A stretch of DNA of 64,000 bases from a virus. Each line of letters begins with the position of its first letter. Within the stretch, counting starts at the first letter, position 1. Positions 10,266 to 40,206 of this stretch are shown piece after piece. A program made the position numbers and the translations under genes. Under the pieces are notes generated by a model. The model was not told the DNA's origin and ran no database searches. It saw nothing but the letters and a program-made list of their open reading frames with translations. The stretch spans positions 974 through 64,973 of IMG/VR virus record IMGVR_UViG_2786546475_000019, one strand, 5' to 3'.

Positions 10266-10274
10266 GGTGATAAA

Positions 10275-10526
10275 ATGAATACCGTTATTATGGGGGTAAC
10301 AGTTAGTTGGAAAACTACTGTTGCTGCAATTCTTTCCTCTCTGGCTGCTATTTTTATGGTGCTAGCTGCTTATTTTGATGGCGACCCAGCCACGATCCCT
10401 AATTGGGAAACTGCAGCAATTGCCGTGTTGGCAATCGGCCAAATGATTATTGGGGTTTTTACTAAGGACAATGATAAGTCCACTGAAGACCATAAACTTC
10501 CTCGTAAACGATTGAGGACAAAATAA
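10275..10526 (+). CDS. Holin-like small membrane protein (2 TM, charged C-terminus)
   Basis: 83 aa, two hydrophobic helices, KLPRKRLRTK tail. Confidence 0.4.
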   Translation: MNTVIMGVTVSWKTTVAAILSSLAAIFMVLAAYFDGDPATIPNWETAAIAVLAIGQMIIGVFTKDNDKSTEDHKLPRKRLRTK

Positions 10527-21641: not shown

Positions 21642-24600
21642 ATGGCCAAGCAATACGATATTGATACCCAACCTGCGATTAAAAGTCTCGCTGATTTAAC
21701 ATCAATGGTAGGGAAGCTGACTAAAAAGTCAGAAACTTATAATGATAGGCAACGTACCGCGAACCGAGCACTTAAAACTGCTGGGGATCGCCTTGTTACG
21801 TTTAAAGATAATGTCAAGCACGCTGCTTCCGGTGTTCGATCTTTGAACACGGCTCTTGACAAAATGGACACAACCAATGATAATTTCAACAAATTAAATA
21901 CGGCTGCTGGTGTTTTAGGCCGAAGACTAGATAGCTTAGAGACTAAAGCCGGAACTACTATCATTCGGTTGGGGGAATTACGCACAGCCGCAGGTCGAGC
22001 AGCAGGGGCTTTGGAGCGTGAAAAGAAAATCATTGGAGAGTTAAACAGCTCTCTAAGTCAAATGAACCAACGCTTCAAGCGTATGGTTCAAATCTTTGAT
22101 GATAAGAACCAAAAGTTGAATCTGCAACAAAGGGCAATGCTGGCAGACGCTAGAGCCATGGGCCAAGGTACTAAGTCTGCTAACCTGCTCTCTCGTACTT
22201 TGCGACGATTGAGAGATATTGTCGGAACGTTCGCAGGATATGGAGCTTTGTTCCTTATCACTAACGAGCTACGTCAATCCATTGGTTCCGCAAAAGAATA
22301 CGCTAAAGCCATTTCCGAGATTAGAACAATCTCGGACCGAGCTGCAGTCTCCAGTCAAGAGTGGACCAATAAGCTTTTAGAACAGTCTAATGCGTATGGC
22401 TTTACGTTTCTGGATCAAGCCGAAGCTGCGTATCAATCTCTTTCGAATCAGGTCACCAACGCTGGTGATACTTTTGCTTTCTTGCGGTCAGAAGCTGCTT
22501 TGTCTATGGTAGCAGTTTCTTCGTTGGAAGCTGCAACTAACTCAACAACTGCTACATTGAACGCGTTTGGAGACTCGGCAGGAGCTGCTAGTCGCGTGAA
22601 CGCAATTCTGTTTAAGACGGTTGAAGAAGGTCGTATCCGCTTGGAAGACATGGCGAATACAATTGGTCGTGTTTCGATTCTATCATCCCAACTTAACATT
22701 AGCTTTACGGAACAACAAGCTGCTTTGACTCAACTAACAAAGCTTGGTGTACGGACCGAAGAAGCTATGACATTGTTGCGTAACGTCGAACTTAAATTGT
22801 TGAAGCCGTCGGAACGAATGTCTGAGCTGTTCAAAGAGTGGGGCTTTACCTCAGGTCAAGCAGCAGTTGAGACGTTAGGATTGGCTGGCGTCATGGAGAA
22901 GTTTGTCGAAACTGCTAAACAAAATGGCGACGTAGCCGCAGAGCTGGGTGATATTTTCAATCGCTTGAGGGCTATTGTCGGTGTCGCTGGTTTGACTCAA
23001 GCCTCATTAACTGAGGAAATGGAGAAGTTTGAGAACGCGTCGGAAAGTGCTTTAGGTGCTTTCTTGGAGCGAATTAACTCAATTGATACTAGAGCTAATC
23101 GCCAAATTCAACAGTTTAAGAATACGTTTGTTTCGGAGTTTGGGGCTCCTATTCTTAAAGTTCTTGTTGAGACCGCCGAAGGTATGGGCGGCATGGAAGC
23201 TGCAACAATTCAATTGATTCGCAACTTGAAACAGCTAGTGACAATTGGCGGAACTGTAGCCACGGCCCTTGGCGTCTTGGCCACAGGTCGTGGAGTTTAC
23301 GCCCAAGTTACGTACTGGACTAACCAGTACCGGATTGCCACTCTAGCAAATACAGCGGCTTTGTCGGCGGAACAAGTGGCATTAGTTCAAGCGTCAAGGG
23401 CTCGGATTGCCTACGCTTTGACTTCGCTAGGTGTGGCGGGGGGCGTAGCGTTAATTGCATATCAAATATATCAAGCCACTCAAGCTCACGAAGACTACGC
23501 GTCAAGTGTAAGACAAGCTGCTGCTGAGTTCCGTAACAACTTTGGACCGGACGGGCTTAAAGCTTATGAAACGCTTAATGTCGAAATCAACAACACTACC
23601 GAAGCAGCTCTAAAGCAAACACGAGCAATGCGTAGGGCCTTTGGAGAAAGTGCCGCCGCTATTACTCGCAACTTGAACGCGTTAGAAGCGGCAAATGATA
23701 GTACCATTAACGCACTAGACGAATCTATCTCCGCCTACGTTGATAAGATGGAGTCTAAGTTCCAGAAGATTCTTCGGGAAAGTGCCAAGATTTCAGCCAA
23801 GCTAGCTAATAATATTGCTCAAGGTACAGCGGCCACACAACAAGTTGATCTTAGCTTACGTGTGCGTCGACAAGTATCTAATATCAACCAAGGTGCTGAC
23901 CCTTTAATGGGGTACAAAAAGCTGTTCAAGCAGCTTGAGGCTGAGGCTTTTGCAGCTCTTGATAAAGGAGATAAACAACGAGCAGATAATCTGTTTGCAG
24001 AAGTTGACAAGCTAGTTTCTGAGTATCGCAAACGATACACTAATATTAAAGCTCCGACGCTCCCTATTCCAACTATTCCTGCGAACGCTACGCCGATGAT
24101 GCGTAGGCGATATCGAGGATACATTGAAAACATCAAAAAGCAAAATGCTGAGATTAAGAAAGCAACTGCTGATGATAAAGCGGAACTTAACCGAAAATTT
24201 GAAGAAGGTCAAATTAAGTTTTATCAACGACGTAATGATAAAATCAAAGAATACATTGAACTTCTTAAGAAACAAAAAGCTGCCGAGGATAAAGCTCGTG
24301 AAGTAATGACTCAAAAGTTTAAAACTTTTGAAAATATTTTCGAACAAGTTGATGAAGCTAAGACGGGAGACGAAGTTCGATCTCTTACTAATAAATTCAA
24401 AACAGCTTCCGCTGGTGTTCTGGACCCAACGGAACGTCTTAAGTTTATTCGGGACTTGAACCAGAAAGCCCTCGCTTTAGACGAGAAAGCAGAGATTGAG
24501 CGTAAACGAGTTCTGGTTGCACGGGCCAAAGAAACCCAAGAGGCGTACTTAAAGACTCGCGACGAATTGATAAAACGTCAAGAAGAAGCTCGACGTAAGC

Positions 24601-25241
24601 TCAATGAGTCCTTGACTATTAACTTAACAGACGGGGAGTTTGCAGATCGGTTTGCTAATAAAGATAAAGCGTTACAAACCATAATTAAAGACGCCCAAAA
24701 ACAAATTAGGCGATCCAAAGCTAGGTTAACTCCGGGTTGGCTTGTAAAGGAAGACAGCATTAGAGCGGAGAAGTTGACTCTGCGAGAAGCTGAACAGACT
24801 TTAAAAAGGGCTATGGCTCAACAAAAAACTCTTAAAGATCTTTATCGCCAAGTTAAGGACTTTAACCTCAAGCCTACTGATAAAAAAGCCGAAGCTTTGA
24901 TGGATACTTTAGGTAACCTTCCAGGTTTCGAAAAGTTTACTAATAAGATTGGGCAAGCAGCTGATGAAGTGAACCGGTTACGTAACCTTTCGCTCCAACC
25001 ATTTGATTTGAAAATTGACGCTGACGCCAGTTTGGAAACAATTCGAAAATTGCAGAAAAATATAGACATGTTGCGAGAAGGGTTGGAGTTGACACCAATT
25101 AATTTTGCTCCGCTTCAACAACCTACTACTCAAAACAACATTACGTTCAACGTATCTCCGGGCCAAGGACCAGATGCTTTGGTGGCGGACGTTACTGATA
25201 AAATTTACGATGCCTTTAGACGAGGATTGATAAACGTATGA
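21642..25241 (+). CDS. Tail tape measure protein (1199 aa)
   Basis: Very long, alpha-helical/coiled-coil, Ala/Leu/Lys/Glu-rich. Has a central hydrophobic stretch. Canonical position. Confidence 0.75.
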   Translation: MAKQYDIDTQPAIKSLADLTSMVGKLTKKSETYNDRQRTANRALKTAGDRLVTFKDNVKHAASGVRSLNTALDKMDTTNDNFNKLNTAAGVLGRRLDSLETKAGTTIIRLGELRTAAGRAAGALEREKKIIGELNSSLSQMNQRFKRMVQIFDDKNQKLNLQQRAMLADARAMGQGTKSANLLSRTLRRLRDIVGTFAGYGALFLITNELRQSIGSAKEYAKAISEIRTISDRAAVSSQEWTNKLLEQSNAYGFTFLDQAEAAYQSLSNQVTNAGDTFAFLRSEAALSMVAVSSLEAATNSTTATLNAFGDSAGAASRVNAILFKTVEEGRIRLEDMANTIGRVSILSSQLNISFTEQQAALTQLTKLGVRTEEAMTLLRNVELKLLKPSERMSELFKEWGFTSGQAAVETLGLAGVMEKFVETAKQNGDVAAELGDIFNRLRAIVGVAGLTQASLTEEMEKFENASESALGAFLERINSIDTRANRQIQQFKNTFVSEFGAPILKVLVETAEGMGGMEAATIQLIRNLKQLVTIGGTVATALGVLATGRGVYAQVTYWTNQYRIATLANTAALSAEQVALVQASRARIAYALTSLGVAGGVALIAYQIYQATQAHEDYASSVRQAAAEFRNNFGPDGLKAYETLNVEINNTTEAALKQTRAMRRAFGESAAAITRNLNALEAANDSTINALDESISAYVDKMESKFQKILRESAKISAKLANNIAQGTAATQQVDLSLRVRRQVSNINQGADPLMGYKKLFKQLEAEAFAALDKGDKQRADNLFAEVDKLVSEYRKRYTNIKAPTLPIPTIPANATPMMRRRYRGYIENIKKQNAEIKKATADDKAELNRKFEEGQIKFYQRRNDKIKEYIELLKKQKAAEDKAREVMTQKFKTFENIFEQVDEAKTGDEVRSLTNKFKTASAGVLDPTERLKFIRDLNQKALALDEKAEIERKRVLVARAKETQEAYLKTRDELIKRQEEARRKLNESLTINLTDGEFADRFANKDKALQTIIKDAQKQIRRSKARLTPGWLVKEDSIRAEKLTLREAEQTLKRAMAQQKTLKDLYRQVKDFNLKPTDKKAEALMDTLGNLPGFEKFTNKIGQAADEVNRLRNLSLQPFDLKIDADASLETIRKLQKNIDMLREGLELTPINFAPLQQPTTQNNITFNVSPGQGPDALVADVTDKIYDAFRRGLINV

Positions 25242-25921: not shown

Positions 25922-26231
25922 TATTGATGGAATTGACGTTCCGATGCCAAAACGAGGGAACTCGTTTGAAGATACAACGCAAATTATCATCCAGCAAACT
26001 GAGGATGATAGTGTCCACACGCAAATCAAAGATGGTGAAATTATTCGCCAGATGCAGTGTGAAGTTCCAAATGATGTTTACGACCAAATAAAAACTAAGA
26101 GAGGCACAGAAGTAGCTTTAATCTTTGACGACTATTCGGAAAATGTCACAATGATGTTTGACGCATCCCCTAACTTCCAACGCACTCTTTGGAATGTGAG
26201 TTTTACTTTCTATGAGAAATATAGCAGTTAA
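25914..26231 (+). CDS. Minor tail protein
   Basis: Position. Confidence 0.35.
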   Translation: MFSIDGIDVPMPKRGNSFEDTTQIIIQQTEDDSVHTQIKDGEIIRQMQCEVPNDVYDQIKTKRGTEVALIFDDYSENVTMMFDASPNFQRTLWNVSFTFYEKYSS

Positions 26232-28899
26232 CCAATACGGCCATTCTTCAAAGATTGAAATTGATTTGAATGGCATGTTATACGAACCTCTTAAAATTGG
26301 TACACTGTCTCAAACCAGTGTAAACGCCACCCGTGATGTTGCAACTATTGAAGTTGTACTTCACGGTACTATTGATATTGCTTTTGAAGCTCCGTGTGCT
26401 GTAAAGTATAACGGAGAAATTTTATTTAAGGGCATTGTTGATACTCCGATTCGGCAAGAACGAGGCGTAACCAAATTCCGAGTTATTCAACAAGTGGAAG
26501 CAGAGGAAGTTGGCTTTGCTCCAGAAGAAAGTGAACTTGACTTGATAAATGAGTTCACTCCGTGGCCTATGGGTTTCGGAAGTCCGGTATACGCTAAGAC
26601 CGTCAAGGTCCGTAAACAACCTACAACCAGCACTGAGACTAACATCTGTTTGATAAATCTTGAGCTAGTTGAACGACGCGACCAGCTTCTAGACGCAATA
26701 AATCGTGGGTTATTTATCATTAACTATTGGCGAACTGCTGCGGATAAGCAAGTCAATCCTAATGCTGAAACAACATTAAACCAATACATTGCAGTTCTCA
26801 CTACAGGAGAAGCTCAAAATATCCTCTGGGCTGAAGCTCGTAATTTGCTTCAACAACGTCAAGATGATCTGAACAAACATCCAAACGACATTGATACGCT
26901 AACTGAATTTTACAATCAGCAAGATGAAGTAGCTTCTTTAAGTGATACTATTAACGCTTTGCTTCAAAGCAAAGTAACGCTAGAGGACCATATACAGTTC
27001 CTACGCTTCATGGCTCGTATGAAGCGATATGCAGTTGATAACATGCTTAAGATTTGGAAGCAGCTTCGCATATGGACTTACGAGTATTTTGAGCTTGCGT
27101 TACAAATCTGTGAACAAGAACGGTGTGCTCAACCTGTTCATTACGTTGAAGACTCTAGGGACTTTCCTCAGAACACTGATGTTGATGTTCGGATCAATGA
27201 CTTCATTTTTACTGTCCAGTTCGACGGTAAAAAGATGACAGGTATCAGTGGCCCGAACCCTGAACAAGAGAACCTAACAGTTAGCCCACATCGAGAGGAC
27301 GATGCTCCGTGTTCCGAGTACGAGTTTTTCAACGGTGTCAACGTATTTTACACTCCCGCTATCGGCCTAGAAAATACTTGGTGTTTGGTCAAAGACACCA
27401 GCGACAATTATCACGTTATCTACGTCGAGAAGCAAGAAGATGATAAGTGCACGTTTCGAGTTGTTCCATGGTCCGGGGAGCGTTTTAAACAAGCACAGTC
27501 TCAATCTCTTGAAGCGGCAACTTTACAGTTAGCCGACGCTCCAATTTATGATATTTTAAGAGACGGAGTAAACTCGTCTCTTTACCAAAGTCAAGCGTTT
27601 AATCCTAATACATGGCTTGACCGTAAATCAGCTGACTACATTCAAGCTATCGCTCCGTTGTCAAATCCCGGACCAGACGTTCGTCGAAACATTGCTATGC
27701 TGGTCCACTTAAAGAAGTTTGATAACCTTAACGGTTTAGTGATTCCGGACCCTCAGCCTAGGGACATTTACACTATCATTGGGGAAGATATTGCTAGCAT
27801 TGAGCAAGTAGCCTCCCGTCCGTTACCTTCTTGGTATGACTATAATTTGATACCAGAAGAACTTCCTGAATTAGAAAACTGGGAAGCTCCTCCCGGCACC
27901 GAAGTCACAATGGACACTTGTGAAATTTACGCCATTAACACAATTCAATCTCAAGTTCATGGAGTTTATGCTTATTTCACGGATCGAGATAAGAAAAGTT
28001 TACGGGCCCTTCCTGAAAGTTATTATGAGATTGAGACAGAGGACTTAGGCACGTTACGTCCAACTCTTTTAAAGCTTCGGCGACCTTTGCCAAGTAATTG
28101 GGATAAAGAGATTTACGCCACCTACACGTCCAAAGTTGGACCAAACGTGGCAGATATCTTACGATACATTATCAATAAGTACACTGATAAAACACCAAAT
28201 TCGTCTTTTGATACTGTCAAAGAGTACCTCGTAAACTACCCTGCTAACTTTGTAGTGTATGATCGTCCTGACGCTCTTTCGCTGATAAATCGTATTTGTC
28301 GCGAAGCTCGCTGTGCGGTCACGTTAAGAGACGACCAGTTCCACTTGACTTACCTTTCCCGAGTTCCAGGCTCTGACGGCATTGGATTCACTTCTAGCAC
28401 TGTGTTGAAGAAATCACGCTCAGTAAGAGTTTCTAAAGTTGAAGATATTATCACTCGGTACAATGTTACGTGGACGCCGAACGGACTGCCCATTGAACCT
28501 GAGAAGCTTGTCTTGCGACATAATGTTGGCAAGTACGGGTTAAAAGATAATGACTACGATTTCCTGATTTATGACCAGTATGACTTGGTGCATAAAACAA
28601 TTAACTTCTGGTTGATTCGCAACTCAGAAATTTATCAATTTTGGAAAGGCAATTTAACAATTGGTGGCATCAACTATCAATTGCTTGATGAGCTGTCTAA
28701 TGGCGTTGGAACGGGTAGAGTACAGTCTTGGGAATACGCTCATGATACTCGGACCGTTACTGTTGAAGTAAACACTGGAATTCCTTACAACGAAGACGCG
28801 GTAAATCAATATTACTGGCCGTCTCAAATTGATGCTGAACTTATCTGGCCAAATGAAGCTGACACCACTGGAGTAACAGGAACAATCGAATGCCCGTAG
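26212..28899 (+). CDS. Tail tip / host-specificity (J-like) protein, 895 aa
   Basis: Large ORF after the small tail genes. Confidence 0.5.
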   Translation: MRNIAVNQYGHSSKIEIDLNGMLYEPLKIGTLSQTSVNATRDVATIEVVLHGTIDIAFEAPCAVKYNGEILFKGIVDTPIRQERGVTKFRVIQQVEAEEVGFAPEESELDLINEFTPWPMGFGSPVYAKTVKVRKQPTTSTETNICLINLELVERRDQLLDAINRGLFIINYWRTAADKQVNPNAETTLNQYIAVLTTGEAQNILWAEARNLLQQRQDDLNKHPNDIDTLTEFYNQQDEVASLSDTINALLQSKVTLEDHIQFLRFMARMKRYAVDNMLKIWKQLRIWTYEYFELALQICEQERCAQPVHYVEDSRDFPQNTDVDVRINDFIFTVQFDGKKMTGISGPNPEQENLTVSPHREDDAPCSEYEFFNGVNVFYTPAIGLENTWCLVKDTSDNYHVIYVEKQEDDKCTFRVVPWSGERFKQAQSQSLEAATLQLADAPIYDILRDGVNSSLYQSQAFNPNTWLDRKSADYIQAIAPLSNPGPDVRRNIAMLVHLKKFDNLNGLVIPDPQPRDIYTIIGEDIASIEQVASRPLPSWYDYNLIPEELPELENWEAPPGTEVTMDTCEIYAINTIQSQVHGVYAYFTDRDKKSLRALPESYYEIETEDLGTLRPTLLKLRRPLPSNWDKEIYATYTSKVGPNVADILRYIINKYTDKTPNSSFDTVKEYLVNYPANFVVYDRPDALSLINRICREARCAVTLRDDQFHLTYLSRVPGSDGIGFTSSTVLKKSRSVRVSKVEDIITRYNVTWTPNGLPIEPEKLVLRHNVGKYGLKDNDYDFLIYDQYDLVHKTINFWLIRNSEIYQFWKGNLTIGGINYQLLDELSNGVGTGRVQSWEYAHDTRTVTVEVNTGIPYNEDAVNQYYWPSQIDAELIWPNEADTTGVTGTIECP

Positions 28900-29705
28900 A
28901 AGACCGTAAACCTAGTGACCTGTCTGATGAATTTCCTGAACGAATTTTTCCAAATTTAAAACCGCCTGGAACTATTCGAACTGAACGAATAGGTCTCCCA
29001 AAACAAGACGCGTTCTACAACGACACTACCGAAGATCCGTACACAGATGATAGGTTGTTGTCGGAAGTTGGGGTCGTTGTTAAAAAGAACAGTAATGCCG
29101 TTTACGTAGTCCATACTCAAAATGGCGTTCAACGTACTTCGTTAGCTTTGGACCCAAATCGAGAATATCAAATTGGACGGGAAGTAGTTTTACAGCCGCC
29201 CCGATTAGAAGGGGATGACTGGCTTATCATTGGTGAGACTCGTCAACGAGAGAGTGAGTATGTAATTTGGAAAGCTCGCCATAATGGAACGTCCTATGCT
29301 TTCCAAGCTGACCCAATGAAAGAATCCCATTTGGAGCTAGACGGAGCTGACTGGAAACGATTTGCTACGGTCCTTGGCTCAACAATGACGCTACCTCCAG
29401 GTTGGTATGATATTTCAATCAACGTTAAGAGCCTAGGCAGCTCTCTGCTAGTTGTTGATATGACGCAAGTTGGTGGAGATCAAGGAAGCGACTCAGCCCC
29501 AGCTTCATGGACATATGACGTGGAACACAATGGCACGGAGCTTGCTACAGATTACGACCCTGTGAGCGGTAACATTTATAAACGTCCATCTATTGGCCAA
29601 CTAAGTGTAGCAACCAAGGGTATCTGGGCAGCAGGAGCTATTGTTTGGTGTAACGAAGCTTTGGTTGGTGGCGACTGTGACGATCTTGTAGGATGGGAAG
29701 GGTAA
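28890..29705 (+). CDS. Tail-associated hypothetical protein
   Basis: 271 aa, coupled to the J-like gene. Confidence 0.35.
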   Translation: MPVEDRKPSDLSDEFPERIFPNLKPPGTIRTERIGLPKQDAFYNDTTEDPYTDDRLLSEVGVVVKKNSNAVYVVHTQNGVQRTSLALDPNREYQIGREVVLQPPRLEGDDWLIIGETRQRESEYVIWKARHNGTSYAFQADPMKESHLELDGADWKRFATVLGSTMTLPPGWYDISINVKSLGSSLLVVDMTQVGGDQGSDSAPASWTYDVEHNGTELATDYDPVSGNIYKRPSIGQLSVATKGIWAAGAIVWCNEALVGGDCDDLVGWEG

Positions 29706-30379
29706 TGAAGAAGTCAATCGTATTGGTAGCAGTTGGCCCCATGTTCCAATTCTATCAACAGTATACTAAACGCCGCTTTGAAGCTTACGCTGATAAAATA
29801 GGAGCTGAGTTAATAGTCCTAACTGGCATCACTCAAAAGTGGTGGGGTTTAGAGAAATACCGAGTGTCTAAACTTGAACTAACTGGCCCAACAGTTTACA
29901 TTGATGTAGACGTTTTGATTCAAAGTTGGGCTAGAGACATTTTTGAACTTTATCAACCGGGGAAAGTTGGGATTTATGACGACTACCCCGAAGCTAGAGA
30001 AGCTCAACCGGGAAACGACTGGGCTCCCCGTGAATGGTCGGAAATGATGCAGTACCAACACATCGATGACCCTTTTAGGGAGCGACTTTTAAATAGCGGG
30101 GTAGTGCTTTTTGATAAAGAGACCCAACATATTTGGAACCCGCCGCCTTTTCGATTTAAGCCTAGGCATTGTGCGGAACAGTTCTGGATTGATTATCAAG
30201 TCGGTGACAACTGGTTCCCGTTGCCTAGGGAATTCAACCATCAACATTGGACTAAAAGCTTTGCTACCTCGTTTCATAAAAGCGATTTTGTGCACTTGTC
30301 CGCCTGCAAGAATCGAGAATATTGGATCGCTAAATACGAGCACCTTTTAGATAGGAGCCAACCTTATGACAACAATTGA
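29693..30379 (+). CDS. Putative nucleotide-sugar glycosyltransferase (GT-A fold, DXD motif)
   Basis: IVLVAVGPMFQ ... TVYIDVDVLI (DXD) pattern. Confidence 0.4.
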   Translation: MGRVMKKSIVLVAVGPMFQFYQQYTKRRFEAYADKIGAELIVLTGITQKWWGLEKYRVSKLELTGPTVYIDVDVLIQSWARDIFELYQPGKVGIYDDYPEAREAQPGNDWAPREWSEMMQYQHIDDPFRERLLNSGVVLFDKETQHIWNPPPFRFKPRHCAEQFWIDYQVGDNWFPLPREFNHQHWTKSFATSFHKSDFVHLSACKNREYWIAKYEHLLDRSQPYDNN

Positions 30380-30528
30380 TATTTCAGATATGACGTTTGA
30401 AATTAACTCGGATGGAAGCATCTCAATTCGATTCTTTAGCTCTACGACGTTTTCTATCAATTTGCTTGATGGAGTAGACGGCGATGAAGCAGTTGTATCT
30501 GTCACTCGAAAGAAACAAATGGATTAGA
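30366..30528 (+). CDS. Small ORF (54 aa), unlisted in the ORF track
   Basis: ATG at 30366 fills the gap between the GT and the next gene. Weak support. Confidence 0.2.
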
Positions 30529-30530
30529 AA

Positions 30531-31748
30531 ATGCCTAAATTTACGCTTCTTGATTTTGCGGAAACAGAGACTCAAAGAAAATACGTAAAAGAGTATTTAG
30601 CTGTAAGGTCAATGCAAAAAGTAGCTGATACTTTTTCAGTCAGTAGGCCCGCAGTTTCCAAGTGTTTGAAAAGAGTTCGAGCGTTAGCTATTGTTCAAGG
30701 ATGGGACCCGGACCGTGGGTTTGATAAACCTGTAGCTACTAATCAAATAGCTCACGGAATTAGTAGCTATTACAATTCCGAAGGAGTTAAAACTCAAGAA
30801 TGGGTCAAGTCTTCTCTGAATCTTGATAAACTCAAAGATTTGATGAACGCCCTAGTGGGAGAGTTTAAGAAAGATATTAAACCGATTCGTCCTACAAAGA
30901 TCCTGAAACGAGCTAAATTTTCAGAAGACGCTATTACGTTTTATTTAAAAGGAGATGCTCACTTAGGACTACTTTCCTCCAAAGAGCTTACAGGAGTAGA
31001 AAACCACACTCTGGATTTAGGGATTCAGGTTAATAAAGCAGCTACCGCCAATTTGATAGATCGAGCAGCTCCAACTAAAATTGGAGTTTTAGTGAATTTA
31101 GGAGACGTCCTACACGCTAATGATAGCTCTGGCTTGACTCCTCGGAACCGCCATAAGCTGGACACTCATCTTAATTTTACAGAAGTTGCTCGCGGTCTTA
31201 GAAAATTGCTCTTGTGGGAAGTGGCTCAAGCTTTAAGTAAACACAAAGAAGTTTGGGTAGTTAACGTGAAAGGCAATCATGACCCGGACCCTGCAATCTG
31301 GATCAACGAAATTCTTGAAACAAAATATGAGAATGAACCAAGAGTTAAAATTATTCCCAACGCTCAACCTATCATTCCTTTAGCTTTTGGGGACTCTGCT
31401 GTTTTCTTAAGGCACGGAGACAAAGCCCCTCACTCTAGGGCGTATGAAGTTATTACGTCACATGAGGAGTATTCAGAAGTTTTCTGTAACGCTCGCCCTG
31501 CAAACACCTACGTGTGGTCCGGACATATACATCATGAAACCAAGAAAGAAATTGGTAAAACTAAGATTGAAACGTTCCCAAGCTTAGCTCCAATTGATTT
31601 ACACCACGCTCAATCGTTGTACGGAGCTTCCCGTTCAATGGTAAGTATTGAGATACATGAAGAATACGGAGAGATTGCTAGACGAACTTGTAACCATCGT
31701 ATGGCTAAAGAGTTAATTCGAACTTACGCAATTACTTCGGGTATTTAA
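30531..31748 (+). CDS. HTH domain fused to a calcineurin-like metallophosphoesterase with Mre11/SbcD-like motifs
   Basis: N-terminal HTH-like (SRPAVSKCLKRVRA). GDAHLG (motif I), GDVLHAND (II), KGNHDPD (III), GHIHHE (V). Confidence 0.6.
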   Translation: MPKFTLLDFAETETQRKYVKEYLAVRSMQKVADTFSVSRPAVSKCLKRVRALAIVQGWDPDRGFDKPVATNQIAHGISSYYNSEGVKTQEWVKSSLNLDKLKDLMNALVGEFKKDIKPIRPTKILKRAKFSEDAITFYLKGDAHLGLLSSKELTGVENHTLDLGIQVNKAATANLIDRAAPTKIGVLVNLGDVLHANDSSGLTPRNRHKLDTHLNFTEVARGLRKLLLWEVAQALSKHKEVWVVNVKGNHDPDPAIWINEILETKYENEPRVKIIPNAQPIIPLAFGDSAVFLRHGDKAPHSRAYEVITSHEEYSEVFCNARPANTYVWSGHIHHETKKEIGKTKIETFPSLAPIDLHHAQSLYGASRSMVSIEIHEEYGEIARRTCNHRMAKELIRTYAITSGI

Positions 31749-32255
31749 ATGATACTTCAATGGCTTTCTGATCTGCTTCAAATGTTCACGGACCTCGTTC
31801 CTCGGCCTTTGATTGTGCGGGCTGACGAGGAGCTAGTATCATTTGTCTTTGGTAAATACACTAGGAAGCTTGGGCCAGGTTGGTACATTTCTTGGCCAGC
31901 TTTTGAAGAATTAGAAGTAGTTCAAGTCAAAAGAGATTTTGTTTCTCGCCAACAGAAATTTTGTAAAAACGGCATCACTTATGCTTATTCTTGGCAAGTG
32001 CCTTACGAAATTACTGATGCCTTAAAGATGGTAGTTAACACGTACGACTACCAAGAGACAATTGCTGATTTTGTAGAAGTGTCTTTAGCGGAGTGTTGGC
32101 AAAACTTTGGACCTGCCGAAATTTGTAACCTTGAAACACAAGATAAAGTGTTTGATAAAGTTCGCGGTATTTTGGAAGAGTACGGGGTTGAAATTAAAGC
32201 GTTTCGTATCACCTCGCACTCCGAAGTAATTGCTTTATCCATTTGGGAGAAATAA
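31749..32255 (+). CDS. SPFH/band-7-like domain protein (short, no obvious TM)
   Basis: VRADEELVSFVFGKYTRKLGPGWYISWPAFEELEVVQVK matches the SPFH N-terminal core pattern (V.RFGK...L.PGLHF.IPF...V). Confidence 0.45.
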   Translation: MILQWLSDLLQMFTDLVPRPLIVRADEELVSFVFGKYTRKLGPGWYISWPAFEELEVVQVKRDFVSRQQKFCKNGITYAYSWQVPYEITDALKMVVNTYDYQETIADFVEVSLAECWQNFGPAEICNLETQDKVFDKVRGILEEYGVEIKAFRITSHSEVIALSIWEK

Positions 32256-33403
32256 TGCCTTTTCTATTTCGTAACGGCCGCTTAGTTTATCAAGACGGCA
32301 AAGCAGTAGTTAGCGACGATACTACAGAGTGCGTCTGTTGTGATCAAATTGGAGAAGATCCTTGTACGTGTGCCGGGCTCCCTGATGCTATTTACGTCTA
32401 CGCTTACGACCGTTGGGCTTTGCAATATGATAGCTTTAGACCCATGTGGACGTGGGATGAATTCTTGTTTGAGAGGCAAACTGATACAACGTGGGAGAGC
32501 GTGGAGCTTGAAACTCTTAGGTGTGACGGAAGTAACTACTTAACGTGGGACGGCGTTGGATTGTTGCAAGGCCCGGGAAATAGTAATCTTGTTTGTGGGT
32601 GTGATCTTTTTGCAAGTCGTCAACCTTATTATGGGTATTATCGAATAGAGGAGTGCCACCCTGATTTCCAATCTTTTAACGCAACAAATCCTACTAGACC
32701 AATTCCTTGTCCTATTGAGAATCAAAATGATTTCGGGTATTCTATCAGTCGCACACTTAGCGGCTTATTCTTGGGATTTGAAGAATCGTATCTAGGGGGA
32801 GGGACTGGATACGATGGCGGCGAGAGCGGAGCCGGTAAACAATACGGCTACGGTCCATGGCAACGAACCTTGGGAAATGTTCAACGACCTGCGTTCCGGG
32901 ACCCATGTTTAGATTATCCTCCGTGGTTAGGAGCTACAGCTTACGGACCTTCGGCCTATGGAGCAGGGAGCATTGATTTTGACGAGTGTTACTCTCTTGA
33001 GTATTTAGAAGGTCCTTCTGAGACGTACCCTCAAGATTGGCAATATACTTGGGCTTTTGGTTGGAGTCAAGCGGAAGCTCCTAACATTGCCAAGTTTCTA
33101 AATTTGATAATTAAAGGCGATGGTACGCTATCTGTTATCTTCCACCGAGGCGTGCCTAATACAACTCACGCGTACGGCAAACCAATTATGTCGCCCCTGA
33201 ATCCTTTAGAAATTTGGGGAGGTACTGCTACAGGATACGACTTCAATGATAGCTCTCCACAAACTTTTGATATTGAAGTAAAGCGACATGGAATATATGT
33301 CACGCCTTTACCGATGACATACACTTTTACGATTCTTCAACAGAATCCGACAATTGATACTCCAGGCCCAACATCGATTTACACAGGGAGTTTTGAAGCA
33401 TGA
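32255..33403 (+). CDS. Hypothetical protein (Gly/Tyr/Trp-rich). ATG start at 32255 preferred over the TTG at 32243
   Basis: gggaga RBS upstream of the ATG. Confidence 0.4.
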   Translation: MPFLFRNGRLVYQDGKAVVSDDTTECVCCDQIGEDPCTCAGLPDAIYVYAYDRWALQYDSFRPMWTWDEFLFERQTDTTWESVELETLRCDGSNYLTWDGVGLLQGPGNSNLVCGCDLFASRQPYYGYYRIEECHPDFQSFNATNPTRPIPCPIENQNDFGYSISRTLSGLFLGFEESYLGGGTGYDGGESGAGKQYGYGPWQRTLGNVQRPAFRDPCLDYPPWLGATAYGPSAYGAGSIDFDECYSLEYLEGPSETYPQDWQYTWAFGWSQAEAPNIAKFLNLIIKGDGTLSVIFHRGVPNTTHAYGKPIMSPLNPLEIWGGTATGYDFNDSSPQTFDIEVKRHGIYVTPLPMTYTFTILQQNPTIDTPGPTSIYTGSFEA

Positions 33404-33612
33404 GCCAAAGCCAACTTGAAGCTTACGCCAGACAACGTAAGTTTAGGCCCAAGATGGAAAATGTTCAAATTTGTGAACAGTGCGACCACTTAATACGTGA
33501 TCGCTACTGTTCCAAATTTGGCAAGTGTCCTGACGCTCAAAAAGATTTCTTTAAAGCCCTTGAACGAAGTAAATGTCCTTTAGAGAAATTTCCGTCGCAG
33601 CTCAGCGAATAG
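33400..33612 (+). CDS. Small Cys-rich protein (CEQCDH...CSKFGKCPD)
   Basis: ORF of 70 aa, last gene of the + strand block. Confidence 0.3.
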   Translation: MSQSQLEAYARQRKFRPKMENVQICEQCDHLIRDRYCSKFGKCPDAQKDFFKALERSKCPLEKFPSQLSE

Positions 33613-33996
33613 AATTCTAACTTGCTTAGGAGTTAACTCTAACAAACGCCCGATTTCCGAATACGTATAGTATTGAAGTCGTAAACTTACAGCCCATCGC
33701 TCCTCGACAGTTAGCCTATCTAGGTCAAACTGATCGAGGAATTCTTCTGCACTTCTTGATAATTCTTCAATATCGCCTAACGCTTCGGTATCATTGTTTG
33801 TTTGCATTTTCTTTCGACGACGGTAAGCGTCAATACCTCTCGACCGTAGTAAGGTTCTTAAGTGTGAGATGAATTTCTTTTCCTCAACTAGCTCATGATA
33901 ATTCTCCCACGCTTGTAAAAATTCCAAAGATAGCGAGCAGTCAAATTTAGTTTCAAACTCTCGCAACAAGTAAACATAATCGTCGATCCTTCGCAT
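33580..33996 (-). CDS. Sigma-factor region-4-like HTH protein (possible ECF-type sigma or anti-sigma-related)
   Basis: C-terminal YSEIGRLLELTPKQVRILFAELRRKF resembles a sigma-70 region 4 HTH. Confidence 0.35.
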   Translation of the reverse strand: MRRIDDYVYLLREFETKFDCSLSLEFLQAWENYHELVEEKKFISHLRTLLRSRGIDAYRRRKKMQTNNDTEALGDIEELSRSAEEFLDQFDLDRLTVEERWAVSLRLQYYTYSEIGRLLELTPKQVRILFAELRRKFL

Positions 33997-34005: not shown

Positions 34006-34593
34006 CTACACTGCTGTTAAGTCTAGCCAACACAATTTTTTGTAAATTTTAGCAGTCAACAACGTATCATAAAGAGCGTCATGCAAACTAGCTTGATCGT
34101 AAGGAATGTCCAAAGCTTTGGCTAATGAGCTAAGCTTCACATCTGGGAACAATGGCTTATGGCCCCGAAGCTCACATCTATCATTGATAAAGTGAGCATA
34201 ATCCATGGTGTCTCTACAGAACCCGTGGAAGTGGAGTCCATAAGTTGCCGACCCATATAGTTTCTCCAACATAGGCCTATCAAAATCTTTGTAGTTGTGT
34301 CCAACTGGCAAGATTCTAGACCATTCCGCTGAGAAGTTTAACCGTTCAACCCAGTCTTCAAACGCATCCATTGCTTGGTCCTGAGTCAATCCATGGATGC
34401 TGGCTTTAGCTGCGTAGGGCGAAGTGATATTTACTTCTGGTTTTATCAACCACTGAACCGCTAGATGTTCAACAGGATCAAGATTATCATTAAGAGGAAT
34501 CATAGCAACTTGCCAGACCTCATCTAGCTCTACATCCGTTCCTGTCGTCTCAGTATCAATGCAGACTAACAAACTTCCTTTATGGTTTAACAT
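34006..34593 (-). CDS. DEDD-family 3'-5' exonuclease (DnaQ-like)
   Basis: Exo I motif LLVCIDTETTG. YDTL in the C-terminal region is consistent with Exo III. Confidence 0.6.
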   Translation of the reverse strand: MLNHKGSLLVCIDTETTGTDVELDEVWQVAMIPLNDNLDPVEHLAVQWLIKPEVNITSPYAAKASIHGLTQDQAMDAFEDWVERLNFSAEWSRILPVGHNYKDFDRPMLEKLYGSATYGLHFHGFCRDTMDYAHFINDRCELRGHKPLFPDVKLSSLAKALDIPYDQASLHDALYDTLLTAKIYKKLCWLDLTAV

Positions 34594-35230
34594 TTTCTAG
34601 GCCCCCAGAATTAAGACCTTTGATAGACTTAGCCAGTTTTAGGGTCTTCGCAATCAAATCCTGAATGCTTCCATCATTTTCCAAAATGAAAGTTGCACGC
34701 TCCTTGAACCGTCCAACATCTTCGGAGACGTGCTCAGGTTTAGGAGGAATCTTGCCCGGACGTTCAAGATAAATTGTAACATCGAACAAATCAAACTCGT
34801 TATCAAACCTAACGTCGTCAGCCAAGAATGAATTTGACCCCATGAAATTTAAAACGCCTCGGACGTGAGCGTCCTTATTAAGCGTTCGAACAATCCCCGT
34901 CCCAAAATATTGCATCAACATTCGAGGAGTCTGCATGATAGGATGGTCCCAATGAGCCACTCGTTCAATTCCTCGAAGCGAAACTCCGCTACGTGTTTGG
35001 AAATGGAGACAAAACTTACGAATAACTCTGGGCCCGATTACTCGTTCATTGATGCGAATGCCTTTGAAGAAACTTTCAAGCCAGAAACATCGCTCCAAAC
35101 CAAAAGTCAAAGACAACGCACTTTTCAAATGTTTAGCCAACGGATGATAGTAAAGCTCTAGCTCTTGGGTAAGAACTTGAGCCACGAGACTTTTTCCACT
35201 TCCTTTGTAGCCAATGATACCTACTCTCAT
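34580..35230 (-). CDS. P-loop nucleotide/nucleoside-monophosphate kinase
   Basis: Walker A GIIGYKGSGKS at the N-terminus. Confidence 0.5.
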   Translation of the reverse strand: MRVGIIGYKGSGKSLVAQVLTQELELYYHPLAKHLKSALSLTFGLERCFWLESFFKGIRINERVIGPRVIRKFCLHFQTRSGVSLRGIERVAHWDHPIMQTPRMLMQYFGTGIVRTLNKDAHVRGVLNFMGSNSFLADDVRFDNEFDLFDVTIYLERPGKIPPKPEHVSEDVGRFKERATFILENDGSIQDLIAKTLKLAKSIKGLNSGGLENVKP

Positions 35231-35655
35231 TCTTTTTCTCCTTTTTCTGGATTACCGAAACAGTTGTAACAAATACCTTCTACTAAGCAATAAGCTTCAC
35301 AATCCCCGCAATGTTCGCCAAGGTCTGTAGGAATACCATGATATTCGATAGGCTTATTGTGCTCTGTTGCGTAGTCCAACTCAGCTTGAACGCCGATTGA
35401 TTGTCTCCAACCCCACTGAGTTAGAACTATCAAAGATTCACAAAAGCTCAAATACTCTAAGTCAATCTTTTCCCAAAAGTCCCAAGTGGTGGCCACGTTG
35501 GACATATGTTTCTGAAGCTCATGACTGTGAGTAATAGGGCTGTAAACGTTGGTCCCATTCTGAACCAAACGGGCCGCGTACCTTGTGACTACTCCAAACC
35601 GATGGTCTATCATTCGAGAATCAGAGTGAGTGTAAGGGGTAGCTAAATATATCAT
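35227..35655 (-). CDS. Nucleoside 2-deoxyribosyltransferase-like fold protein with a C-terminal Cys cluster
   Basis: IYLATPYTH ... VYSPITHSH ... pattern, then CGDCEAYC...CYNC. Confidence 0.35.
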   Translation of the reverse strand: MIYLATPYTHSDSRMIDHRFGVVTRYAARLVQNGTNVYSPITHSHELQKHMSNVATTWDFWEKIDLEYLSFCESLIVLTQWGWRQSIGVQAELDYATEHNKPIEYHGIPTDLGEHCGDCEAYCLVEGICYNCFGNPEKGEKE

Positions 35656-36347
35656 TTGCTTCTCCGGTTAGCTTGATAATTTGCGATTGAAAACCCACGA
35701 GGAGTCATACTACGAATCTCTTTTACGTTAGGGTGTGATCCTCCAATTTTACCATATTGCCGGGAGTATCCATCTTCTGGTATCACTTTCTTTTTAGGCG
35801 GCATCTTAAACCCGCCACCTGTCCACAGGTATGTTTCCTTCGGGTACGCGTCCCGTGGAGCAATATATTGTGGCCAAGTAGGGTGTTCATCATCTTCTGG
35901 TAAGTACCCACCGTATTCGTACGGGTGAAACTTGTAATCTGGTTTACGCCACAAAGATGATAGTCTCGATTTAGGATTCTCAATGAACCACGGACATTGC
36001 AACTCTGTGAAAACGCGACGACACCAGATAGCGTAACGTGCAGCTTTGTATTGGAAGTCTGGATCGTGGCCTTCTTTCGAGGGCCAGTGAATAATTCCAG
36101 AGACTGCCAAGTCGGTACAAACAGGGAACGCCGCCCCAAATACCACTTCCTTTCCTTGAAAAGTATCAATGATACGCCTAACTTGTTCCAGGTCGTGAAG
36201 GTCAGCCTTGTGGAAATGAATCACGTTGTCCCCGATCCGTTGTCGATGATCTACGTGCTTTATATCGTAAGCATGACATTCGTAACCTGCTCTGGCCCAA
36301 GGATGAAGTAACACCCCGGAGTGATCGTACAAGCTTAAAACTATCAT
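35652..36347 (-). CDS. Short cytosine-C5-methyltransferase-like protein (divergent, 231 aa)
   Basis: LSLYDHSGVLLHPWARAGYECHAYDI (motif I-like), FPVC (PC-motif-like), FIENP (ENV-like). Too short for a canonical DNA C5-MTase. Confidence 0.3.
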   Translation of the reverse strand: MIVLSLYDHSGVLLHPWARAGYECHAYDIKHVDHRQRIGDNVIHFHKADLHDLEQVRRIIDTFQGKEVVFGAAFPVCTDLAVSGIIHWPSKEGHDPDFQYKAARYAIWCRRVFTELQCPWFIENPKSRLSSLWRKPDYKFHPYEYGGYLPEDDEHPTWPQYIAPRDAYPKETYLWTGGGFKMPPKKKVIPEDGYSRQYGKIGGSHPNVKEIRSMTPRGFSIANYQANRRSK

Positions 36348-37168
36348 ACGGCCACGTCACCTTTGATAGCCGGATGGGGATTGTAACCTTCAAGAATAAT
36401 ATCTTCCCACCGAAGTGATAAAATATTCTCCAAAGGAGATAACACCGGATCAGCTTGCCTTGCAAAACGAAGCTTTGGAGCTTCTTTAGCTGGGCGTCTC
36501 AACTGTAGGTTGACTTGATCTACGTGGTTGTTGTAGATATGAGCGTCGCCAAACGTATGGTAATACGTCTTGGGTTTAAGGTCCGTGGCCCACGCCAAAA
36601 TGTACATAAGCAACACGTAGGATGCAATGTTAAACGGAACGCCAAGAAACATATCAGCAGAGCGTTGATACATTTTCAAGGACAGTTCTCCATTTGATAC
36701 GTAGCATTGGAAAAACATATGGCACGGCGGTAAGGCCGCATCTCCACCTGGAAGGTGATGTTTTGGGTGCCAAGCAGAGCAAATAACTCGTCGGCTGTTT
36801 GGAGACTCAGTTAGGCAATCAAGCACGTACTGAATCTGATCTACGCCGTTGAAGTCTCTCCACATCTTCCCATACACCGGACCAAGCTCTCCGGCAGCGT
36901 CTGCCCATTCGTCCCAGATATGAACATTCAGGTCTTGTAACGATTTGATATTTGTCTCTCCTCGAAGAAACCACATCAGTTCCTCAAATACCAACCGCAA
37001 AGGTACAAACTTTGTAGTGAGCAATGGGAAGTGACTACTGATTGTTCCGTAAATTTGAGGGCCGAATAGACGAATTGTTCCGGTCCCTGTTCTATCATCA
37101 TGTGTTTCTCCGTGGAGCAAAACACTTTTAAGTAATGACAGATACTGTTGTTCTAACGCTGAATACAT
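36344..37168 (-). CDS. thyA: Thymidylate synthase (ThyA family)
   Basis: DRTGTGT, ALPPCHMFFQCYV catalytic Cys motif, FLGVPFNIASY (Asn for dUMP), DAHIY. Aligns along its length with E. coli ThyA by eye. Confidence 0.85.
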   Translation of the reverse strand: MYSALEQQYLSLLKSVLLHGETHDDRTGTGTIRLFGPQIYGTISSHFPLLTTKFVPLRLVFEELMWFLRGETNIKSLQDLNVHIWDEWADAAGELGPVYGKMWRDFNGVDQIQYVLDCLTESPNSRRVICSAWHPKHHLPGGDAALPPCHMFFQCYVSNGELSLKMYQRSADMFLGVPFNIASYVLLMYILAWATDLKPKTYYHTFGDAHIYNNHVDQVNLQLRRPAKEAPKLRFARQADPVLSPLENILSLRWEDIILEGYNPHPAIKGDVAV

Positions 37169-37585: not shown

Positions 37586-38236
37586 TTAAACCATATTCAA
37601 AGTAATTGGAGGTTTGTCGCTTTTTAAAAGTTTAGCTAGCTTTTCTAACGCTCGCTTTTCAAGTTGACGAACTCTTTCTCGCGAGATATTAAGAGTTTCC
37701 CCAATAGTCTTAAGAGGAATCCCTTGGGCTCGTAGCCTCAAAACTAAAGCATCTCGACTATTTAACTCAAGAAAAGCTTTTTCTAGAGCAATAAGCTCCT
37801 CTTGCCATTCTATCAAATCCCTATCAAGACATTCTAAAGGTGTAACAGGGTTATTAAATAGCCCGTGTAAGGTTTGAAACATTGGAGCACGAGCTATAGC
37901 AGCTTTAGCTCTGTCAAGATGAGCTGGATTTGGAGATACTTTAATTAACTCCACCTTGGTTTTCATGTAAGTTATCATTCGTTGTTTCACCCACGGAGTG
38001 GCGTAAGTTGAAAACTGATAACCTTTACTAGGGTCAAATTTTTTGACCGCCTGACATAACCCACTCATTCCTTCTTGAATTAAATCGTCTAAATCAAGCT
38101 TAGAATTTTTCTTGGCAAAAGACACCGCTATCTTGATAACCAATCCTTGATTATCTAACACTAACCGATTGAGTGCTTCATCAGCTTCCTTTCTAGCAGA
38201 ATGATATTTTTGTAATAACTCGTCATTAGTATCCAC
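37586..38236 (-). CDS. Sigma-70 family RNA polymerase sigma factor (group 3/4-like, SigF/FliA-sized)
   Basis: Region 2: DLIQEGMSGLCQAVKKFDPSKGYQFSTYATPWVKQRM. Region 4: TIGETLNISRERVRQLEKRALEKL. Confidence 0.65.
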   Translation of the reverse strand: MDTNDELLQKYHSARKEADEALNRLVLDNQGLVIKIAVSFAKKNSKLDLDDLIQEGMSGLCQAVKKFDPSKGYQFSTYATPWVKQRMITYMKTKVELIKVSPNPAHLDRAKAAIARAPMFQTLHGLFNNPVTPLECLDRDLIEWQEELIALEKAFLELNSRDALVLRLRAQGIPLKTIGETLNISRERVRQLEKRALEKLAKLLKSDKPPITLNMV

Positions 38237-39327: not shown

Positions 39328-39682
39328 CCGGTTTCTCCGTATTTGATAACAATATTGCAGTCCGCGTAACGCCGCCTATGGTCCACGTATTAGGGAGTAG
39401 CTCAATAAGCTCCTCTGCAATCTCTTGCATCTCCTCTTTATCAATGCTATTTGAAGTTACAAGAATATCAACGCCATGGTCGTAGACCATGTTTCGCCCG
39501 CAGAATGAACAGTTTTCGGCCATATAAGCGTAGACTATTTGGAAAGGAGAAAGATCTTCAACAGTGATATAAACGTTGTAGGTGTCAATACTGATACTCA
39601 AAGATTGAGCATCTTCAATATCAGACAATGCTTCACGTAACTTGCCTGCCGTTAAAGTCTTATCTTCTAGTTTCATCTTCAT
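39305..39682 (-). CDS. Hypothetical protein
   Basis: ORF of 125 aa. Confidence 0.35.
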   Translation of the reverse strand: MKMKLEDKTLTAGKLREALSDIEDAQSLSISIDTYNVYITVEDLSPFQIVYAYMAENCSFCGRNMVYDHGVDILVTSNSIDKEEMQEIAEELIELLPNTWTIGGVTRTAILLSNTEKPDGKSDII

Positions 39683-40206
39683 AGGTCCCCGTCCTTTCGG
39701 TTGTTTGATTCTTCGACGGTAAAACCTTTCTTGTACCGTCCTTCAAGTTTGTTTCGATTCATTTGTAGCACTTCTTCAAGTGTTGAGCCAATTGTTTGAG
39801 CGGCTTCCCGTATGTAGCCTATTAAAAGGCCATGACACCGTTTCACAAGTTCTCGGTCAAAAGGCAGACCTTGATAAAAGACTTTCTTTTTATGTTCTGC
39901 CAATGTTTCGAGGGTTTCTAAAATGCTGTCCCCACTATCTACCCATATCTCGAACGGCTCAATATCAATTGACGCCGCAAGCAGCAAAACGTAGAACAAC
40001 ATATCGCCAAGCTCAAGTTTAATATGTCGAGCGTCGTCCGTGTTCCTCGTTTCAAAGAACTCAGCCACGATCCCATCAACAGCAGTCGCGAATCGCGGAA
40101 CGTCGACCTCTTTATGAAGGTTCCTTTGAGCTTCAAAATACTCGTGAAGATCGCTTGATTGAGGTGATAATTTTTCGTTAATAAAGTTAAGATGTTCTTT
40201 AAACAT
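39679..40206 (-). CDS. MazG-like nucleoside triphosphate pyrophosphohydrolase
   Basis: IKLELGDMLFYVLLLAASIDIEP matches the EExx(E/D) MazG helix. Confidence 0.55.
   Translation of the reverse strand: MFKEHLNFINEKLSPQSSDLHEYFEAQRNLHKEVDVPRFATAVDGIVAEFFETRNTDDARHIKLELGDMLFYVLLLAASIDIEPFEIWVDSGDSILETLETLAEHKKKVFYQGLPFDRELVKRCHGLLIGYIREAAQTIGSTLEEVLQMNRNKLEGRYKKGFTVEESNNRKDGDL

Follow-up and report, generated by a model that had tools for sequence, protein, structure and literature searches.

A mini-SPFH gene abutting a nuclease-type metallophosphoesterase gene at the variable late-operon end of an uncultured marine phage

Proteins of the SPFH family are membrane scaffolds of ancient origin whose roles in bacteria are still debated. 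In the HflK/C-FtsH and stomatin-protease pairs, they corral or regulate a membrane-associated enzyme, and their genes are often paired with a hydrolase gene (the stomatin/NfeD-STOPP and HflK/C-FtsH systems), as we find here for a family of small phage SPFH proteins. We analysed 64,000 nucleotides (nt) of viral DNA (positions 974 to 64,973 of IMG/VR record IMGVR_UViG_2786546475_000019; hereafter the window), where a 168-amino-acid (aa) SPFH protein is encoded directly after a metallophosphoesterase (MPE). An earlier note, made from the sequence of the window, had described an island of accessory genes at this place. Each domain family in the island is already known, its glycosyltransferase is of a kind ordinary for aquatic phages, and MPEs with an N-terminal helix-turn-helix (HTH) are a common phage family. 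New with respect to the searchable literature are a phage-restricted family of mini-SPFH proteins and its repeated linkage to MPEs; searches of that literature gave no tested function for the MPE family phrog_704 and no link between SPFH proteins and phosphoesterases in phages. Beyond the earlier note, the MPE-SPFH pair alone is recurrent, and the SPFH gene is conserved in a phage lineage.

The metallophosphoesterase and the mini-SPFH protein

The two genes lie as follows:
30531..31748, + strand: HTH plus MPE, 405 aa, phrog_704 (type 'MPE-a')
31749..32255, + strand: mini-SPFH protein, 168 aa, starting directly after the MPE stop codon

The MPE matches phrog_704 ('DNA repair exonuclease') with E = 6.4e-60, residues 18-391 aligning to positions 12-388 of the 390-position profile, and phrog_284 more weakly. 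The four-layer alpha/beta sandwich fold of the calcineurin-like superfamily is present, as are its five motifs (DxH, GD, GNH[DE], H and GHxH). Among 48 homologues, D142xH144, G191D192, G248N249H250(D251), H295 and G331H332xH334H335 are all invariant. The first 55 residues are modelled as a three-helix HTH and match Pfam UPF0122 with 23.4 bits (cut-off 22.7); homologues bear assorted HTH Pfam labels, and a profile search gave weak GerE/LuxR-type matches. The N-terminus and the motifs thus bear out the earlier description of this protein as an HTH fused to an Mre11/SbcD-like phosphoesterase. Its best structural neighbours are the DNA nucleases PolD DP1, Mre11 and SbcD, and when solved structures were searched with a profile, the matches were confined to SbcD/Mre11 nucleases and HTH regulators. 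It is predicted to be an Mn/Fe-dependent nuclease of the DP1/Mre11/SbcD structural type, whose substrate would be DNA.

The likeness to these enzymes has its limits. Sequence similarity to Mre11/SbcD and PolD DP1 is marginal (E = 1e-3, motifs I-II only), and the N-terminal HTH is a feature of the window MPE, not of Mre11/SbcD or archaeal PolD DP1. Whereas Mre11 and SbcD have a Rad50/SbcC-like partner, none (SMC/AAA_23-type) is found among the Pfam-annotated genes within 10 kilobases (kb) of the window MPE.

The earlier note could recall no well-known phage counterpart of this fusion, but phrog_704-type MPEs match 1,961 of the 50,697 isolate phage records used for all comparisons with isolates. 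MPEs of a second type, MPE-b, match 61, and about 4% of isolate records carry such an MPE. With isolate-phage members, the window protein shares only about 29% identity, as against 39% with its closest metagenomic homologue. In isolates, the gene usually belongs to DNA-metabolism modules: it follows DNA polymerase, exonuclease and endonuclease VII in J8-65 and adjoins primase in VP-1. A position ahead of the packaging genes is also seen. In Rhodobacter phage RcIroh, it stands at the very end of the late operon, past the tail and lysis genes and facing a DNA methylase and ThyX, which is the same late-operon-end place as in the window, without an SPFH gene. Isolate members of phrog_704/phrog_284 (LIMEzero gp27-like proteins of Autographiviridae, the Ackermannviridae 'oxidoreductase' and RcIroh gp50 of Casjensviridae) share the HTH+MPE architecture and all catalytic motifs. 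However, no mini-SPFH was present in the four isolate loci examined, while the window MPE is paired with one.

The SPFH protein matches Pfam Band_7 (PF01145) with 54 bits (gathering cut-off 23.6). An exhaustive HMMER search (E <= 1e-3) yielded a family of 332 cluster representatives, nearly all of 145-230 aa and aligned from about residue 3 to the end, which we call mini-SPFH. The family profile matches the SPFH domains of stomatin, QmcA and PH1511 with E = 5e-13 to 8e-12, and the window domain aligns to stomatin residues ~49-191 (E = 5e-13). Mini-SPFH proteins end where the coiled coil of these three proteins starts; in the window protein, the family-profile match stops about ten residues before the C-terminus. 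Canonical SPFH proteins of the stomatin/HflKC kind have a membrane anchor (a transmembrane (TM) segment or hairpin) and a C-terminal coiled coil, whereas the window protein has neither. With about 170 aa and without coiled coil, TM segment or hairpin, it cannot build the canonical 16-24-mer cage as those proteins do.

The 17 N-terminal residues of the window SPFH form a conserved amphipathic helix, the family motif at this end being WLSxLLQxxxDLIPRPxIV, and from this helix we infer membrane binding of the window protein. The helix is hydrophobic enough for a TM segment in 14 of 148 members. The window protein is not among them, its highest 19-residue Kyte-Doolittle mean being 0.87, below TM level; the earlier characterization as a soluble SPFH protein agrees with this and with the Band_7 match.

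The mini-SPFH family was found on 62 IMG/VR contigs. Searches of the isolate phage records by tblastn gave no match, either with the window protein or with a second mini-SPFH query, and 185,579 reference genomes gave two matches only, both in metagenome-assembled genomes (MAGs) and neither offering a host clue. A word-index homologue search with the window SPFH returned only itself, and scans of IMG/VR for close relatives, with the SPFH, the MPE or the tail protein upstream of the island (see below) as query, returned nothing.

Recurrence of the pair among SPFH loci

We clustered the neighbours of SPFH genes in 64 loci carrying relatives of the window SPFH and detected MPE neighbours with a hidden Markov model covering both MPE types. 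In 14 of the 64 loci, an MPE of 377-482 aa is encoded within 1.4 kb of the SPFH, always on the same strand. The order of the two genes varies, and four pairs abut or overlap. The enrichment of this adjacency has P <= 1e-11 unless nearly every phage had an MPE, a value to be read in the knowledge that the loci are not independent. The closest IMG/VR homologue of the window SPFH (44% identity) is followed by a 384-aa phrog_284 MPE. Conversely, the gene for the second-closest homologue of the window MPE (37% identity) overlaps by 4 nt the next gene downstream, whose 180-aa Band_7 product has no pairwise similarity to the window SPFH; a 2,405-aa protein and a portal of the Mu type are encoded on the same contig. 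Homology between the two MPE subfamilies extends over their entire catalytic domain (hhalign probability 97%, E = 8e-11). Their N-termini differ: one type has an HTH, the other a coiled coil and a CxxC...CxxC zinc ribbon.

In the SPFH tree, clades track genomic context. SPFHs with a linked MPE are spread over at least five parts of it, both MPE types being represented within one clade. The window SPFH clusters with an MPE-linked SPFH, outside the clade of loci described next, despite sharing their tail-gene synteny. In the MPE tree, the basal lineages are SPFH-linked, while the window MPE and that of one other locus (L007) form a small subclade inside a crown group otherwise without SPFH.

The synteny in question involves a homologue of the 895-aa tail protein, present in 20 of the 64 loci, and a convergent DnaQ-like exonuclease, present in 14. 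The common layout consists of a tail protein of about 1,000 aa, zero to two variable small genes, the SPFH gene and the operon end, faced by DnaQ, a dATP/dGTP diphosphohydrolase-like gene and a primase-helicase. In this lineage, SPFH is the conserved last gene of the late operon and its surroundings are variable.

Other contexts of mini-SPFH genes were also observed. In nine loci (L175, L176, L178, L179, L181, L183, L204, L210 and L215), a serine protease of the Trypsin_2 family (chymotrypsin fold, 197-271 aa) is encoded one to three genes away, in most cases with one or two hydrophobic segments. This pairing is unlike the classical NfeD/ClpP type: the partner of a mini-SPFH is a nuclease-type MPE or a trypsin-like protease, as against a ClpP-type or AAA protease in the known systems. 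NfeD had no Pfam match among the window neighbours and was absent from the 25 commonest of 33 Pfam families found in 131 neighbours of other mini-SPFH genes. With the recurrent protease being trypsin-like, an NfeD-type partner was rejected. A general role in lysis was likewise dropped, as there was no consistent holin-like neighbour and lysozyme accounted for only two of the 131 neighbours. In a clade of four loci (L195, L200, L209 and L217), the mini-SPFH gene lies inside the head-morphogenesis module, between a DUF4055 portal and a Mu F-like minor head protein. In one locus (L192), a tyrosine integrase gene (7228-8379, - strand) is found two genes downstream of an abutting MPE-SPFH pair, and this carrier may be a temperate phage or an integrative element.

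Zinc-ribbon motifs also recur around the MPE/SPFH module, although homology among them is not established. The window has its own in a 70-aa peptide (see below). A Cys-rich protein of 142-181 aa adjoins SPFH, usually just upstream, in seven loci of the tail-synteny clade (L201, L207, L214, L221, L225, L227 and L232). The CxxC...CxxC N-terminus stands in place of the HTH in the MPE-b proteins of L173, L196, L210, L213, L215 and L229, and a double-zinc-ribbon protein (L009 9377-9838) follows an MPE-a.

The surrounding island and its genome

The remaining genes of the island, and those which frame it, are:
21642-25241, + strand: tape measure, which three small genes separate from the 895-aa protein
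26212..28899, + strand: 895-aa J-like tail-tip/central-fibre protein, the context anchor upstream of the island
28890..29705, + strand: 271-aa ORFan, overlapping the stop of the 895-aa gene by 10 nt
29705..30379, + strand: GT8-like GT-A glycosyltransferase, 224 aa (228 aa from the alternative start at 29693)
30366..30527, + strand: acidic 53-aa open reading frame (ORF), a putative gene, called as a gene on public contigs
32255..33403, + strand: 382-aa Gly/Tyr/Pro/Cys-rich acidic ORFan (386 aa from the alternative TTG start at 32243)
33400..33612, + strand: 70-aa basic zinc-ribbon-like peptide, last gene of the operon
33580-33996, - strand: 138-aa partial sigma-like protein, overlapping the 3' end of the 70-aa gene by 33 nt
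34006..34593, - strand: DnaQ-like 3'-5' exonuclease (phrog_192, E = 3e-28; Pfam RNase_T)

All the ORFs flagged in the earlier note are present on the + strand, and public gene calls on the source contig agree, placing ATG starts at 29705 for the glycosyltransferase and at 32255 for the 382-aa protein. Adjoining island genes abut, overlap or lie no more than 3 nt apart. With the tape measure, three small genes and the J-like protein preceding it, the island indeed lies after the tail genes, at the 3' end of the late operon. All island proteins are predicted to lack TM segments.

Whether the block forms one unit was examined through its relatives. We searched the 64 SPFH loci for homologues of the glycosyltransferase and of the 271-, 53-, 382- and 70-aa proteins and found none (E <= 0.01); nor does a mini-SPFH lie within 5 kb of the MPE in the 160 best-matching MPE loci of IMG/VR and the JGI metagenomes. 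About 20 contigs share the tail protein and the convergent DnaQ-like exonuclease, and the stretch from the tail protein to the operon end carries different genes in different contigs. The position is thus one for cargo, as had been proposed, but the proposal that the genes make up a single system did not survive this co-occurrence check, the block not being conserved as a unit. The island is a variable 3' end of a late (tail) operon with mixed cargo and no single system; the glycosyltransferase and the 271-, 53-, 382- and 70-aa proteins are lineage-specific cargo without detectable relatives in the related contigs.

The glycosyltransferase alone gave only a weak PHROG match (E = 0.006), no match by tblastn in the isolate phages (E <= 1) and none in a PDB profile search. 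It had no Pfam match, to GT8 or otherwise, at E <= 0.1; a 44%-identical homologue (P0273) carries a precomputed PF01501 match. In six metagenomic homologues, D67xD69, N130-S-G-V133, H155 and H197 are invariant. The AlphaFold2 model (pLDDT 82.7) resembles GT-A enzymes of GT8/GT24/GT34, and its top Foldseek match in the PDB is the capsid glycosyltransferase A64R of PBCV-1 (E = 3e-8). Further matches are UGGT, XXYLT1, WbbM, GlyE, glycogenin, LgtC and the GT8 protein 3tzt, the E-values for A64R, XXYLT1, 3tzt, GlyE, glycogenin and LgtC ranging from 3e-8 to 1e-5. By its homologue motif and modelled fold, the protein is a GT-A glycosyltransferase with a DXD motif, as the earlier note had it, and it shares the GT-A fold, DXD, NSG and C-terminal His with retaining enzymes of GT8/GT24/GT34 (A64R, glycogenin, LgtC and phage GT8-like proteins). 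Its closest homologues are longer (313-380 aa; P0274-P0277 and L240 8001-9143), and their extra N-terminal Cys-rich region, with a weak Pfam label of Erv1/ALR sulfhydryl oxidase, is missing from the window protein. Similar GT8/GT34-like enzymes are common in uncultured Caudovirales and cyanophages, and another marine phage encodes a homologue upstream of its terminase, within the structural genes. Because the folds closest to the model, A64R on top, are protein- or glycan-directed GT-A enzymes, the substrate is most likely a protein or a surface glycan, and the DNA glycosylation considered earlier is not favoured.

The 895-aa protein has homologues of about 30% identity (E down to 1e-47) in some 20 mini-SPFH loci, mostly just upstream of SPFH. 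Its family weakly matches the PHROGs central tail fiber J, tail protein and tail fiber protein, and a PDB profile search with this family gave no match. These homologues extend about 230-300 aa past the end of the window's 895-aa protein, and the overlapping 271-aa protein is possibly a detached distal (receptor-binding) module of the tail tip; it has no Pfam, PHROG or PADLOC match, and its single-sequence PDB search gave chance-level hits only. The 53-aa ORF has no Pfam or PHROG match. The 382-aa protein contains 10.7% Gly, 7.1% Tyr and 2.9% Trp, consistent with the Gly/Tyr/Trp-rich protein of the earlier note, and it matched nothing in Pfam, PHROGs or PADLOC, nothing in isolate phages (tblastn, E <= 1) and only chance-level PDB entries in a single-sequence search (E 0.34 or higher). 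The Cys-rich peptide noticed earlier shows the pattern C25-x2-C28-x8-C37-x5-C43 in its 70-aa translation. None of the seven island proteins matched a family of PADLOC-DB 2.0 (E <= 0.01), a library which excludes anti-defence families, and the suggested link to defence systems found no backing among its known families.

The window is part of a contig of about 72 kb from the Tara Oceans marine metagenome, which was assembled independently in several samples; the island block is identical on six such contigs of this phage. At NCBI, proteins CL489_06175 to CL489_06185 are filed as 'MAG: Acidobacteria bacterium'. This bin label is probably no indication of the host, because the contig has the gene complement of a phage that is complete or nearly so. 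The genome is that of an uncultured marine siphovirus-like phage, whose + strand late genes include the large terminase, portal, scaffold, major capsid protein and a tape measure of 1,199 aa. Its capsid protein is at most about 30% identical to that of any isolate phage, and a DNA similarity search of the island against isolate phages gave no match. Most proteins genome-wide lack a PHROG match, so the 'unknown' island genes are typical of the genome and not specific to the island.

A replication/nucleotide-metabolism operon on the minus strand converges on the island, and the DnaQ-like exonuclease is the second gene in from its end. The operon encodes the partial sigma-like protein, the DnaQ-like exonuclease, dNMP kinase, a DUF1937 deoxyribosyltransferase-like protein, a DNA methyltransferase, ThyA and sigma-70. 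The dNMP kinase, the DUF1937 nucleoside 2-deoxyribosyltransferase-like protein, the phrog_757 DNA methyltransferase, ThyA and a MazG-like protein map to 34580-37168 and 39679-40206 (- strand), and the second sigma-factor-like protein, with full sigma-70 r2/r4, to 37586-38236 (- strand). This nucleotide-metabolism/DNA-modification cluster facing the island could point to modified DNA. Upstream of the terminase, ten consecutive large ORFs of 189-616 aa (856-12492, + strand) almost all lack a PHROG or Pfam match, the exceptions being a subtilisin-like Peptidase_S8 (11554-12492) and a weak coiled-coil match (9531-10265). No endolysin or holin was identified among the window proteins scanned, the window contains no tRNAs and no paralogues of island genes, and a promoter/terminator scan of the island gave the same result as shuffled sequence.

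Interpretation and alternatives

The explanation which we favour, tentatively and with a little less than even confidence, is that unrelated cargo at a variable late-operon end is accompanied by one MPE-SPFH cassette, in which the SPFH protein would scaffold or regulate the nuclease. The start of the SPFH gene right after the MPE stop is compatible with translational coupling. Mechanistically, the mini-SPFH would bind the inner face of the cytoplasmic membrane through its amphipathic anchor and, without forming a cage, would scaffold or regulate a client hydrolase, which would be the nuclease here and the membrane-anchored trypsin-like protease in another clade; the latter pairing fits the same scaffold-client logic. 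In the late phase of infection, nuclease activity might in this way be restricted to the membrane and act, for example, on DNA that is incoming or has not been packaged. A bolder form of this idea, which we regard as unlikely, is an undescribed phage two-component system: a cage-less SPFH would dock the MPE nuclease at the cytoplasmic membrane late in infection, with mini-SPFHs acting generally as phage-specific adaptors for client hydrolases. The docked nuclease may then destroy the DNA of superinfecting phages or plasmids, or process membrane-attached DNA.

Several observations weigh against such a cassette. In 78% of the SPFH loci, no MPE occurs within 6 kb, and SPFH is absent from all 160 loci closest to the window MPE, from which it follows that neither protein needs the other; the tail-synteny clade, too, carries SPFH alone. 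The binomial P values overstate the significance of the adjacency, the loci not being phylogenetically independent. In four loci, an endolysin gene lies between or beside the SPFH-MPE pair, so that co-location may reflect a hot spot for 'morons' at the late or lysis end of the operon rather than a complex. Moreover, no isolate phage carried a mini-SPFH in the searches made, and membrane binding of the window SPFH, for which no TM segment is predicted, would have to come from its amphipathic helix alone.

Some of these points lead to the alternative that the two proteins are functionally unlinked: the MPE would be an ordinary nuclease for replication, recombination or repair, or for degradation of host DNA, the co-location would reflect mobile genes collecting at operon ends, and the SPFH would work by itself at the host membrane, where it might, for instance, exclude superinfecting phages, stabilise the membrane or modulate an SPFH-protease complex of the host. 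This agrees with the DNA-metabolism modules of isolate MPEs (J8-65, VP-1), with the SPFH-free MPE at the late-operon end of RcIroh, with the approximately 19 tail-synteny loci carrying SPFH without MPE, and with a literature that treats phage SPFH genes as stand-alone morons of unknown role. However, same-strand adjacency within 1.4 kb in 22% of loci, across several SPFH clades and both MPE subfamilies, and the four abutting or overlapping pairs are not easily explained by chance co-location, and we consider this alternative somewhat improbable. Quite unlikely is a largely virion-related island, in which the 271- and 382-aa proteins would be distal tail or fibre parts, the glycosyltransferase would act on virion proteins and the SPFH would be an assembly or structural factor. 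Some mycobacteriophages do glycosylate their virions with their own glycosyltransferases encoded after the structural genes, and here the block directly follows the J-like protein, with the 271-aa gene overlapping where homologues have an extra C-terminal region. The top fold match of the glycosyltransferase is a capsid-glycosylating enzyme, one of its homologues lies among structural genes, and in other clades SPFH stands between the portal and the Mu F-like protein. The 271- and 382-aa proteins, however, resemble no known family of tail or fibre proteins, a nuclease with an HTH would be unexpected in a virion, and SPFH domains are not known to occur there.

The remaining two alternatives concern immunity. 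According to one of them, the MPE is a phosphodiesterase destroying cyclic-nucleotide immune signals (of CBASS, Pycsar or type III CRISPR), while the SPFH counters membrane effectors; the former role was among the suggestions of the earlier note. It is disfavoured by the N-terminal HTH (a zinc ribbon in MPE-b), which points to a nucleic-acid substrate, and by the nuclease-type neighbours, DP1, Mre11 and SbcD in structure and only SbcD/Mre11 and HTH regulators in the solved-structure profile search. In addition, Acb1 and Apyc1, the known signal-degrading enzymes of phages, have folds other than that of MPEs, and we find this alternative very unlikely. The least credible, and in our opinion highly improbable, is that the whole block of glycosyltransferase, MPE, SPFH, 382-aa protein and Cys peptide forms one defence or counter-defence system. 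Its tight packing in a single operon, its typical cargo position and its identity on six independently assembled contigs would fit. Nevertheless, the glycosyltransferase and the 271-, 53-, 382- and 70-aa proteins never co-occur in the 64 SPFH loci, SPFH is missing from the 160 MPE loci, PADLOC gave no match and glycosyltransferase homologues are found in other contexts.

For this window, the practical message is one of mixed cargo and not of a new multi-gene system. More generally, phrog_704, carried by nearly 2,000 isolate phages, gains its first contextual clue from the recurrent pair. SPFH genes in phages have been noted in the literature without explanation, and the mini-SPFH family appears to be confined to uncultured phages. 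Its repeated linkage to a nuclease-type phosphoesterase or to a membrane protease offers a small handle on the idea that SPFH proteins are scaffolds for client enzymes.

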